The position numbers were made by a program, and so were the translations under genes. Positions 3 to 3,160 of a stretch of DNA of 64,000 bases are shown in pieces. Every line of letters begins with the position of its first letter. Position 1 is the first letter of the stretch. The notes beneath the pieces are model-generated. The model saw only the letters and a program-made list of their open reading frames with translations. It was not told the DNA's origin and searched no databases. The DNA is from a virus (taxonomy: Duplodnaviria; Caudoviricetes): positions 17,567 to 81,566 of the IMG/VR virus record IMGVR_UViG_3300033072_000957, one strand, 5' to 3'.

Positions 3-2174
3 ATCCGCAATCTTACCAAATACCTCATCCATAACAACGATATTTGGTTTTGGCAATGAGGAGATTTTGGTTAATACACTTCGTAATGCTAATGATGATA
101 TTGTTCTTTCATATCCCGAACCCGCATTAAGTGGTTTAACCACTCTTGTTTCGGTGTCAATCATAATAAACTCAACTTCATTTTTATCATTAATACTTAA
201 TTCTAATATAAAATGGCAACTATCAACCAATAATCGATATAACTCTTGATTTAACAATGGAATCATATTTTTAAGAATTACTTTAGAAATACCATTCTTA
301 CCATAAATGGTTAAGTAAATTTTAAACACACCTAATAATTCTTCTTCACCTTTAATCTTAACAATTAAATCGTTGTTAACTGCAATTTTTTCTTTTAAAT
401 TAGTGATGTTATTATTTTGTCTTTCAATTGTTGTGTTAGATACTCTAATATCTGCATTAACCGTTTCAATTTGCGTTCTCACACCAATTAATTCTTGGTC
501 AATTCTTTGATTATCTTCTAATCTTTTCTTATTGTCATTGTATCTGTCTAATCTTAATTGTTTCGCATCAATTTCAAGTTGTTTTTGTTCAACCTCCAAT
601 TCATAACGAGCTTTACGAAGTTTATTTCTTTCGTATGTGTCAAATTCGGTTTTTAAAGTTTCAAACGCATCGGATTCTTTTTTTAAATTATCCAATTCTT
701 TATCGTTTGTTTCTCTATCTTTTAGAATTTCCTCAATTTCTTTTTTGGCTTCCTCAATTTCATCTGTGTGGTCCACCTCATCCAATGGTCTATTACATTT
801 TGGGCAGATTTTACCTTCTTCCAATAATCTGATATGTTTTTCTCTTTCAGATTTTTCTCTTTCACCCAAACGATTTTCAACATCCAATTGATTCATTTTT
901 TCTTTCAATTGTCTGTGTAAATCCTCATCATAATATTTCGATGGTTCCACCACCGCAACATTATTTGCATTGGTTTGGCTTAAATCTTTTTGTCGATTTA
1001 ATTCATCAATTTCTCCTTTAAGTAATGTTGGATTGGTATTAATCAATTCTCTATCAACATCATTATTTTTTGAAGAGAGTAACGTATCTCTTTTATCCTC
1101 AAGAGTTTTTAATGTTTTATCATAGTCTACCAATAATCCCTCATTACGTTTTATTTCATCTTCTGAATCAATAATTGACTGATTAAATCTTTCATTATCC
1201 GCTTCAAGTTGTACTATGTTATAAGTGTTGGAAATTAATTTCTTACTCCAATCATTATAAATTTCTTTAGCAATCTCTTCTTTTGCTTTAAGACTTTCTA
1301 AACCTAAAAATTTAGTAAGAATCTGACCTCTTGCAGTTGGTTTAGATTCAATTAATTCTTCTAAATTATAACCAGTTGTTAAGATGGTTGATAAAAAATC
1401 TTCTTCCGAACCTATTGCGGATGCAATAAAACTTTCCGTTTCTCTTCTTTGTTCACCACTTAAATTCACAATTGTACCATCGTCATTCTTTTTATAGAAT
1501 TCCAACTTATTAGTAACATTATATTCCCCAGACTTACTTTTCTTTCTATTGGTTTTTCTTTCAATGACGTAATCATCTCCGTCAATTGTAATATGACCCG
1601 TCACACTTACTTCATCTTTGTCAGTAAATCTATTGAAAACTTCTCCGTTTGTTTTTGTCTTTGTTGTTGAATTAAAGAATAAGAACATAAGTAAGTCTAC
1701 CGTAGATGTCGATTTACCACCAAAATTTTTAGGTGTTGATTCAACTACAGTAATGCCGTCCAAATCTGTAAAATCAATAATATTATTATCGCCAAATGAT
1801 AAAAAGTTGGAGAATTCAACTTTTTTAATGAACCACTTATTGTATCTAACTTTATTTTCATTTAACTTATCTATTTGTGTATTTACTTTATTATCCAATC
1901 TATCAACTAAATCCCATTTTATATTAATGTTGTTTTCTTTAATGAAATCTTTCATTAAAGTTTTTTGATATTGGTGGTCTAATATATTATCGGTTGCTTC
2001 CAAAGATTGCAATCTAGTCTCCTTAACATTAGATAATGTTTTGGTTATTACTTGGACGCTCTTACTTTTATATTTTTCTTGGAAGTATGACTTTACTCTA
2101 CGAATTTTTTCAGGCGTAAAATTTTCGGGAACATCTTCCCAAGTCACTTTAATAAATGGATTGTTGTAGCTCAT
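3..2174 (-). CDS. sbcC: Rad50/SbcC/T4 gp46-like ABC ATPase (3'-truncated by window edge; not in ORF track)
   Basis: Manual translation from ATG at 2174 (MSYNNPFIKVTW...): Walker A-like TPKNFGGKSTS, long coiled coil, ABC signature GSGYERT and Walker B IVVMDEVFG near base 1; partner gp47-like gene at 3963-4787. Confidence 0.9.
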   Translation of the reverse strand, partial: MSYNNPFIKVTWEDVPENFTPEKIRRVKSYFQEKYKSKSVQVITKTLSNVKETRLQSLEATDNILDHQYQKTLMKDFIKENNINIKWDLVDRLDNKVNTQIDKLNENKVRYNKWFIKKVEFSNFLSFGDNNIIDFTDLDGITVVESTPKNFGGKSTSTVDLLMFLFFNSTTKTKTNGEVFNRFTDKDEVSVTGHITIDGDDYVIERKTNRKKSKSGEYNVTNKLEFYKKNDDGTIVNLSGEQRRETESFIASAIGSEEDFLSTILTTGYNLEELIESKPTARGQILTKFLGLESLKAKEEIAKEIYNDWSKKLISNTYNIVQLEADNERFNQSIIDSEDEIKRNEGLLVDYDKTLKTLEDKRDTLLSSKNNDVDRELINTNPTLLKGEIDELNRQKDLSQTNANNVAVVEPSKYYDEDLHRQLKEKMNQLDVENRLGEREKSEREKHIRLLEEGKICPKCNRPLDEVDHTDEIEEAKKEIEEILKDRETNDKELDNLKKESDAFETLKTEFDTYERNKLRKARYELEVEQKQLEIDAKQLRLDRYNDNKKRLEDNQRIDQELIGVRTQIETVNADIRVSNTTIERQNNNITNLKEKIAVNNDLIVKIKGEEELLGVFKIYLTIYGKNGISKVILKNMIPLLNQELYRLLVDSCHFILELSINDKNEVEFIMIDTETRVVKPLNAGSGYERTISSLALRSVLTKISSLPKPNIVVMDEVFGKIAD

Positions 2175-3160
2175 TTGCTTAACATTAATTTTGATTTAAA
2201 ACTAATTGGGTCAAACCAATAACAACCAACACAACCTAAATCATTCTCATATTGTAATGTTCCTTGTGTTACTGACATTGGATAACCCAAAAATTGTGCG
2301 TCGAATCTTTTTTCAGTTTCAACACATTTAAGACAACAACTTCTTTTGTATTTGTTATCTTTTTGACAAAGGACTTGAAAGTCTTCTATCTTTTGTTTTT
2401 TATAATCGAAGATAAACTCATCGTTATATCTTCCGTTTTTGTGGTCTATTTCGTGTGGTTCGTGTTCTCTATTTGGAATTCCGCAATGAGAACATCCTGA
2501 ATTTTGTAATATCTTTCTTATTATAGGATTTATTCTTCTATCGACTTTCTTTCTTCTATTTTCTACATTGTATCCAACAAAACGATATCCTGAAATTCTC
2601 GCACCTTCGGTTACTGTTTCATATTTCAAATATTTTAATATTGTTCTATACCAACTATTACCATTGTGGGGTATAATTTTATTATCCACCTCAGCAACAT
2701 AATCGTCTCTTTTATAGACATCATTAAAATAAAACCATTCAGATACTCCATTATCGTCTATTGGTGACCATTGCAACATTCTATGAAGTTTACTGTTTGG
2801 TTTAACATTCTTCATCATATCTTTTTTAATTAATTCAATTAATTCTTCATCGGTTTGTTCTTTCTCTTCTTCCGAATTAACTGAATCAAAATTTTCAACG
2901 GCACCACCTCCATACTTCTCAACCAACTCATTTACGATTCCATTCCATTCTTCCTTCTTTTCTGAAGTGATGTCGAAATAAAATTTATGATCCTTTATAA
3001 TTTCTATAAAGGTAGAGTTTTTATTGTCATTAGAATCTTTACTAAGGACAATTTTAAATAACTTACTGTCTTTTAGATAAAAGTCTTTAGTTATTTTATA
3101 GTAAAATTCTTTTTTGGTGTTAAAACTATATCGATTGCCACCAATCTCAAAAATTTGCAT
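2171..3160 (-). CDS. IceA1/NlaIII-family HNH restriction-type endonuclease with extra acidic N-terminal region
   Basis: Ordered motifs G-x-S-x-W, NGNSWYR, CSHCG, EIDHKNGRYND, Q-x3-DFQVLC-x3-N-x2-KR-x2-C-x2-C, RFDA, GCVGCYWFDP match my recollection of H. pylori IceA1/NlaIII sequences. Confidence 0.82.
   Translation of the reverse strand: MQIFEIGGNRYSFNTKKEFYYKITKDFYLKDSKLFKIVLSKDSNDNKNSTFIEIIKDHKFYFDITSEKKEEWNGIVNELVEKYGGGAVENFDSVNSEEEKEQTDEELIELIKKDMMKNVKPNSKLHRMLQWSPIDDNGVSEWFYFNDVYKRDDYVAEVDNKIIPHNGNSWYRTILKYLKYETVTEGARISGYRFVGYNVENRRKKVDRRINPIIRKILQNSGCSHCGIPNREHEPHEIDHKNGRYNDEFIFDYKKQKIEDFQVLCQKDNKYKRSCCLKCVETEKRFDAQFLGYPMSVTQGTLQYENDLGCVGCYWFDPISFKSKLMLSK

Follow-up and report, generated by a model that had tools for sequence, protein, structure and literature searches.

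A Solitary NlaIII/IceA1-Family Nuclease Gene and the Absence of CATG in a Probable Freshwater Jumbo Phage

Introduction

Restriction enzymes are usually viewed as part of a cell's defence, with a methylase required so that the DNA of the carrier itself is spared. The subject of this paper is a restriction endonuclease gene carried by a virus: a solitary member of the NlaIII/IceA1 (ICEA) family, located at 2171..3160 on the minus strand of a 64,000-nucleotide stretch of DNA from a tailed phage (Duplodnaviria; Caudoviricetes). This stretch, referred to as the window, covers positions 17,567 to 81,566 of the IMG/VR record IMGVR_UViG_3300033072_000957. An earlier note on the same DNA had proposed that the phage cuts foreign DNA at CATG and protects itself by having purged that site from its own genome. 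The comparison reported here supports that proposal, in that CATG is entirely missing where the nuclease stands alone, reappears at a few sites per ~20 kb where a methyltransferase gene lies next to it, and stands at ~1.8 sites per kb in relatives that lack the nuclease.

The closest described enzymes are R.NlaIII of Neisseria lactamica and IceA1 of Helicobacter pylori (His-Me finger family 27). The Pfam family PF05315 represents this NlaIII/IceA1 group of Type II restriction endonucleases within the His-Me finger superfamily (PMC5714182), and NlaIII has been assigned to the HNH superfamily (PMC2441816). The phage protein shares with these enzymes the profile family, the predicted fold, and the core DHKNG...N...KR...CxxC...CxxC, and the CATG specificity presumed for it, as for NlaIII and IceA1, is matched by a CATG-free phage genome. 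It differs from them in being virus-encoded, in being ~100 residues longer with an N-terminal domain seen only in phages, and in having no adjacent methyltransferase, which the bacterial homologues mostly possess; its self-protection would come from absence of the site and not from methylation.

The chlorovirus enzyme CviAII targets C/ATG, the same site that is presumed for the phage enzyme. The genes of chlorovirus restriction enzymes always lie beside those of their methylases; the enzymes travel in the virion, and the breakdown of host DNA that sets in within minutes of infection is presumed to be their work (PMC7019647). The phage system resembles such pairs, for example R.CviAII/M.CviAII of PBCV-1, as a virus-encoded short-site restriction enzyme that would likewise be used against the host. 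Unlike the chloroviruses, whose DNA is methylated and whose nuclease and methyltransferase genes are adjacent (PMC7019647), the phage has no methyltransferase beside its nuclease and has instead removed the site.

PacI of Pseudomonas alcaligenes is a lone HNH restriction enzyme that has no cognate methyltransferase and is tolerated as the carrier genome lacks its site (PMC3488263). The phage enzyme is similar in being a solitary HNH protein whose carrier is free of the recognition sequence. The site of PacI is a rare one of 8 bp composed only of A and T. Unlike the bacterial carrier of PacI, which had few sites to lose, the phage would have lost a site of only 4 bp, for which more than 1,000 occurrences are expected in ~320 kb, with recoding at the level of codons. 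In phage T4, endonucleases II and IV spare the phage DNA and feed host fragments to the gp46/gp47 exonuclease, and self is marked by base modification in the form of hydroxymethylcytosine. The nuclease described here is also coupled to gp46 and gp47 homologues and would also spare its own DNA; unlike in T4, self would be told apart by sequence content, and the nucleases come from unrelated families. Restriction-modification and related systems directed against hosts or rivals are known from jumbo phages (PMC7824862), and our literature search found no paper on a phage with a lone 4-bp restriction enzyme and a purged site. The weapon is of a known type, a viral restriction enzyme, and its form of self-protection is unusual.

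The Nuclease Gene and Its Product

The nuclease gene (P0001) is an intact open reading frame of 329 codons with no interruption. The search with the ICEA profile called for by the earlier note gave a strong match, with PF05315 aligning to residues 125-323 with an E value of 1.3e-29 and a score of 103.8 bits, where the curated gathering cut-off is 24; the alignment spans profile positions 3-199 of 218. This ICEA domain, encoded at 2192..2788 (minus strand), consists of a winged-helix-like part followed by a His-Me/HNH nuclease core in the predicted model, and a below-threshold match to HNH in Pfam falls on residues 223-272. The sequence motifs listed in the note are all present and in the order given: NGNSWYR (166-172), CSHC (223-226), DHKNGRYND (239-247), DFQVLCQKDNKYKRSCCLKC (260-279), RFDA (285-288), and GCVGCYWFDP (309-318).

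A family alignment of 19 sequences, comprising the phage nuclease and 18 homologues, contains 29 invariant columns, and 29/29 are retained in the phage protein, including D239, H240, K241, N242, G243, N269, K272, R273, C276, C279, C310, and C313; every invariant residue is therefore kept at a pairwise identity among homologues of about 40%. The predicted catalytic His-Me finger stretch, running from DHKNG (D239-G243) to N269 and K272-R273, is encoded at 2342..2446 (minus strand), and the four cysteines C276, C279, C310, and C313, which are invariant in alignment A1, at 2222..2335 (minus strand). These cysteines probably form a structural zinc site, by analogy with Hpy99I and further restriction enzymes of the His-Me type (PMC2699513). 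Purifying selection on the gene is strong, with dN/dS values of 0.03 and 0.06 between phage orthologues, and its GC content tracks that of each carrier genome from 26 to 47%. Full-length homologues of 317-329 aa, 36-42% identical to the nuclease plus one at 93-94%, occupy the same position in metagenomic and IMG/VR contigs. PADLOC, PHROGs, and NCBIfam returned no match to the nuclease, and no ICEA homologue of it was found among 50,697 GenBank phages or in PHROGs.

The AlphaFold model of the nuclease (pLDDT 81) shows a small alpha/beta N-terminal domain, a winged-helix-like middle, and an HNH core. The structural comparison with NlaIII-type enzymes suggested by the note was carried out against predicted ICEA clusters (Atlas), the family having no solved member, and bore out the assignment: residues 129-326 match a viral cluster with a TM score by target of 0.65 and a Campylobacterota (IceA1-type) cluster with 0.59. 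Matches to HNH proteins in the PDB were weak (Cap5 and McrA, Z 4.2-4.7), and a Foldseek search of the whole model against the PDB gave no match at E <= 0.001.

The N-terminal domain (residues 1-124; 2789..3160, minus strand) is confined to the phage subfamily of ~317-329 aa and is missing from 80/80 bacterial ICEA homologues fetched. Searches of Pfam, PHROG, and Atlas yielded no family match for it. When modelled alone (pLDDT 71), its best structural match was a weak one to the DNA-binding C-terminal domain of SeqA (Z 4.1, rmsd 4.0 over 82 residues). A PDB sequence match had raised the possibility of a cytochrome b5-like domain (E 3e-4), which was rejected as the heme-ligand histidines are absent and neither structural search gave cytochrome b5.

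Absence of CATG and Codon Choice

The absence of the site, which the note read as its elimination, is confirmed and extends beyond the DNA in which it was first seen. The window (1..64000, no strand assigned) contains no CATG, compared with 246 +/- 14 matches on both strands in shuffled sequences, and the check outside the window that the note had left to be made showed none in the whole 81,566-bp record, where about 222 would be expected. CATG is by far the most depleted 4-mer of the record, and its absence is far beyond chance; as a segment cleared of the presumed target, the window itself would be part of the system.

The absence is visible in the choice of synonymous codons. Before a codon starting with G, histidine in the record is encoded by CAC 78 times and by CAT 0 times, and in other contexts by CAT 159 times and by CAC 74 times; no codon preceding a methionine ends in C. 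Histidine in these contexts is CAT 221 times and CAC 150 times in a relative that has no ICEA. At orthologous positions, the CATG of ICEA-less relatives is mostly replaced in ICEA-carrying genomes by the one-base variants CACG, TATG, CTTG, or CGTG.

Other short sequences are also scarce in these genomes. CCAG/CTGG, GCGC, CGCG, and CTAG are moderately under-represented in the record and its relatives, a general avoidance of palindromes in the phage family. GATC is depleted in the record (21/236, in sites found over sites expected, as in all fractions for short sites below) and stands at 399/1030 in the relative G007, despite the core Dam-family methyltransferase described below. A relaxed SATS specificity was considered as the cause of a joint loss of CATG and GATC and was rejected because CATC and GATG are over-represented.

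Comparison among Relatives

Across the relatives, the absence of CATG is linked to the lone nuclease. The 19 non-redundant loci with a lone nuclease amount to 471 kb at 29-44% GC, including the 160-kb record G006, and contain 0 CATG against about 1,332 expected; G006 alone (L134-L141, 159,820 bp) has 0/512. Where the nuclease has an adjacent PF01555 (N6_N4) methyltransferase, loci of 21 kb hold 2, 3, and 6 CATG each (8/116 after removal of duplicates), and this methyltransferase-paired sister lineage is the only ICEA-carrying lineage with a full-length slot nuclease that has any CATG at all. ICEA-less loci (L007-L086, n = 80, 5-21 kb, 75-91% Mre11 identity) mostly show 40-90% of the expected number, the exceptions being L035 (0/47) and the CATG-poor L075 and L076. 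Two (near-)complete genomes in which the nuclease occurs nowhere, and which are the closest relatives by Mre11/Rad50, G007 (100% complete, 335.6 kb) and G009 (97% complete, 323.9 kb, the nearest sister by Mre11/Rad50), have 584/1,138 and 580/1,136, respectively. On a tree of Mre11 and Rad50, the presence of ICEA requires at least 4 changes, and each ICEA-carrying tip with zero CATG stands beside sisters that have CATG.

A search for ICEA in G001-G005 found none. Among these, the ICEA-less records G002 (L319-L323) and G003 (L324-L325) are sister to an ICEA-carrying phage by Mre11/Rad50 and are CATG-poor only in ~25 kb around the position of the nuclease, with 12 sites there and about 6-7 per 5 kb elsewhere. 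This pattern suggests that a CATG-free segment was imported into them by recombination.

Further ICEA genes were seen outside this group. The T4-like contig L096 has a short lone ICEA gene of 197 aa at 6796-7389, which lies between the gene of a prohead protease (Peptidase_S77), immediately upstream, and a 519-aa open reading frame of no known family. Its counts are 0/34 for CATG and 0/47 for GATC, so that a lone nuclease and CATG-free DNA are found together in a further phage that is unrelated to the first. Seven low-GC contigs (L254, L256, L257, L258, L265, L290, and L313) carry short ICEA genes that lack the N-terminal domain beside methyltransferases 61-66% identical to the ICEA-paired one of L004 (an N6_N4 enzyme of 302 aa at 10954-11862, a candidate cognate of the nuclease), and CATG is strongly depleted in them (e.g., 1/27 and 3/26). 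The viral contigs L115-L125 (GC 52-58%) carry distant ICEA-like HNH genes that match residues 237-321 only; CATG is normal and GTAC is strongly depleted (e.g., 1/12, 2/15, and 3/18), and these genes may represent a branch of ICEA with GTAC specificity.

The Question of a Cognate Methyltransferase

As the note had stated, no methyltransferase lies in the window, where PF01555, PF02086, PF00145, and PF02384 are all without a match. Its suggestion to search further for a cognate enzyme was followed through the rest of the record, in which the sole match is a Dam-family gene (PF02086, TIGR00571-like) on the minus strand outside the window (G000:C1:4364-5200; L126:1405-2241); PF01555, PF00145, and PF02384 have none in the 81.6-kb record. 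Orthologues 79-90% identical to the Dam-family protein are present both in the ICEA-carrying G006 and in complete genomes that are rich in CATG and have no ICEA. The gene thus belongs to the core set of relatives that bear CATG, and it was rejected as the cognate partner on that ground. A C5 methyltransferase is present in G006 at 128,985-129,902. Since the record contains zero CATG, there is nothing in it for a CATG methylase to protect.

A classical Type II restriction-modification system has a linked methyltransferase; none was found in the ~26%-complete record, and the neighbours of the nuclease are a membrane protein and Rad50. The locus corresponds more closely to a PacI-like solitary enzyme tolerated through absence of its site, as no cognate methyltransferase was found in the record, and no CATG in the record or in G006. 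Of 80 bacterial loci with ICEA homologues, 32 have an adjacent methyltransferase of the N6_N4 class, 8 of the C5 class, and 3 of the D12 class.

The Gene Neighbourhood and Its Variable Slot

The source record of 81,566 bp has a CheckV completeness of 26%, and its relatives measure 316-336 kb at 95-100% completeness; the record is therefore judged to be a fragment of an uncultured freshwater (lake) jumbo phage of ~320 kb. No DNA match near the window was found in GenBank phages, among which the best match to Mre11 is 33% identical.

The nuclease belongs to a string of co-directional genes on the minus strand and lies two genes downstream of an Mre11/gp47-like metallophosphoesterase gene (3963..4787), an open reading frame whose orthologues match PF00149 (Metallophos) and which has 406 relatives in IMG/VR. 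Immediately upstream is the gene for a small membrane-type protein of 102 aa (3160..3468), whose stop codon overlaps the nuclease start (TAATG); the protein belongs to phrog_781, of unknown function, and is found at 61-80% identity in the same place in nearly all relatives. Immediately downstream is the gene for a Rad50/gp46-like ATPase (3..2174), which runs off the window, is syntenic in all relatives, and has an ATG that overlaps the nuclease stop (ATGA). No terminator-like site occurs between the nuclease and its overlapping neighbours, and the arrangement indicates that the nuclease is translationally coupled to the Rad50 homologue.

The slot between the 102-aa gene and rad50 is hypervariable among relatives and is empty in L079-L082. 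Elsewhere it holds Type II nuclease and methyltransferase cassettes (L022:9840-11634, L015:11713-12312, L020:11077-12679, L019:11698-14291, and L077:12238-14642). One of these cassettes pairs an EcoRI-like nuclease with D12; other contents are a MunI-like nuclease, several proteins matching PADLOC REase_II models with N6_N4 or D12, an Eco57I-type methyltransferase, and a common protein of 190-237 aa whose function is not known. By its annotated contents, the slot is a restriction-modification hotspot of the jumbo-phage lineage.

The commonest occupant of the slot is a protein of 177-237 aa (alignment A3; e.g., L035:11760-12338 and L006:2713-3342) that matched nothing in Pfam, the PDB, or PADLOC. 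Its invariant residues D11, D40, E52, E54, and K86 (L035 numbering) recall the PD-(D/E)xK motif. Derivation of the N-terminal domain of the nuclease from this protein (cluster 0) was considered and rejected, as a profile-profile comparison was negative (probability 0.2%). In the nearest sister phage, the slot holds a different lone Type II nuclease of 197 aa (PADLOC PDLC03414, E 5.8e-10; L007:8939-9532, L008:4225-4818, L074:9496-10089, and the whole record G009, L326-L342). GATC stands at 0/42 near the slot in that phage and at 43/965 over the 324 kb of G009, so that a full GATC parallel for the nuclease of L007 and L008 was rejected, the depletion being local only; it may be a partial one.

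Interpretation

Taken together, the evidence favours an active CATG nuclease without a methylase, to which the phage is immune through a CATG-free genome and which acts on non-self DNA; we give this account a probability of about 0.75. The gene, which forms one tightly coupled string with those of the Mre11 and Rad50 homologues, would encode an active Type IIP-like His-Me finger enzyme that most likely cuts CATG. Self-protection would consist in having no CATG; synonymous codon choice would maintain this condition, and the phage's own enzyme would enforce it at each infection. Because the phage DNA is without CATG, only non-self DNA would be a target, whether the host chromosome or a co-infecting phage or plasmid that bears the site. 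The co-expressed Mre11/Rad50 exonuclease would then act on the double-strand ends left by cuts at CATG, much as happens when T4 breaks down host DNA.

Several points weigh against this account. Cleavage and CATG specificity are predicted from sequence, and the three classes of methyltransferase found beside bacterial ICEA genes mean that specificity within the family may vary. The statement that there is no cognate methylase is limited to the sequenced part, because the record is ~26% of the genome and a methyltransferase could lie in the remaining 74%. The tree of Mre11 and Rad50 may be blurred by mosaic recombination, as G002 is CATG-poor around the slot only. CATG in the host may be methylated, and a host can itself be the cause when a 4-bp site is missing altogether.

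The last point leads to the first alternative, that a host with an NlaIII-type CATG restriction-modification system purged the site and that the nuclease is a harmless captured passenger. Complete loss of a 4-bp site under host restriction is known in phages. Several palindromes (GATC, CTAG, GCGC, and CCWGG halves) are moderately scarce in the phage family, and two records fit a host-imposed purge and count against the favoured account. The fragment G001 (L127-L129; 55 kb, 17% complete) has CATG at 0/141, and no ICEA gene was found in it, neither in its slot (L035:11760-12338) nor in the rest of the 55 kb; either the nuclease lies elsewhere, or it was lost very recently, or the purge was imposed by the host. 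G006, in addition to CATG, is without any GATC (0/473), and no matching GATC nuclease was identified in it. On the other side, the purge follows the gene and not phylogeny or GC, as the ICEA-less relatives have 580-584 CATG in each genome and the ICEA carriers zero at 29-44% GC, and CATG returns only beside an adjacent methyltransferase. A passenger would be useless in a host with methylated CATG, yet the gene shows a dN/dS of 0.03-0.06 and retains its invariant residues. Long residence in phages is also indicated, because the subfamily has an N-terminal domain of its own that all 80 bacterial homologues lack. We regard a host-imposed purge as unlikely and retain it mainly because of G001 and the GATC-free G006.

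A second alternative accepts activity at CATG and places the selective advantage elsewhere than in the breakdown of host DNA, in the destruction of related, rival phages that bear CATG during co-infection or in an addictive element that blocks recombination with CATG-bearing genomes. A hypervariable slot filled with varied Type II nucleases, with or without methyltransferases, is the pattern of a mobile conflict cassette, lake metagenomes of the same kinds also contain related phages with ~1.8 CATG per kb, and a role against rival phages and plasmids has been put forward for restriction-modification in jumbo phages (PMC7824862). Such a role is nevertheless compatible with host degradation, as the enzyme cannot distinguish CATG in the host from CATG in a rival; mutual exclusion among chloroviruses was found not to stem from their restriction enzymes (PMC7019647), and the tight coupling to Rad50 and Mre11 fits a pathway of DNA breakdown. 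As a separate explanation, selection as a competitive cassette appears quite unlikely.

That the protein is no restriction enzyme here, being inactive or an HNH nuclease of structural or other specificity that works with Mre11/Rad50 in recombination or packaging, is very improbable: its location among recombination and replication nucleases, its extra N-terminal domain of unknown function, and the many roles of HNH nucleases in phages (PMC5714182) would allow it, but it leaves unexplained the exact zero of CATG in every lone carrier and its return only beside a methyltransferase, the gene is dispensable in most relatives (slot empty or otherwise filled), unlike one with a core role in recombination, and all family-invariant residues are retained. 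Presence or absence at a single locus also resembles the behaviour of homing genes; the family is one of restriction enzymes, and a genome-wide loss of a 4-bp palindrome tied to the nuclease is not predicted by homing.

The account of an active, methylase-free CATG nuclease can be widened to the lineage as a whole. Restriction without a methylase would then be a regular offensive strategy of a lineage of ~320-kb freshwater phages, with the slot as an exchangeable Type II arsenal in which a lone nuclease forces complete recoding (more than 1,000 expected CATG removed), creates a one-way barrier to gene flow, and has arisen more than once. CATG-free DNA would move into relatives, as is suggested by the stretch of G002 near the slot in which CATG is scarce, and CATG-bearing DNA would be unable to enter carriers. 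Repeated origin is proposed because a lone ICEA gene and CATG-free DNA also go together in L096, a T4-like contig unrelated to this lineage. We consider the chances for and against this wider reading, taken as a whole, to be evenly balanced.

Biological Significance

The virus appears to use a restriction enzyme as a weapon and to derive its immunity purely from its own sequence, with hundreds of codons rewritten. If this is true, the phage would provide a clean natural case of a protein shaping codon choice across a genome, and the specificity of a nuclease would be predictable from the genome of its carrier. It would also offer a mechanism for host takeover or the exclusion of rivals in abundant uncultured lake phages, and a possible barrier to recombination between phages that are otherwise close. 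The natural series formed by the lone nuclease, the nuclease with a methylase, and the absence of a nuclease makes the idea directly testable.

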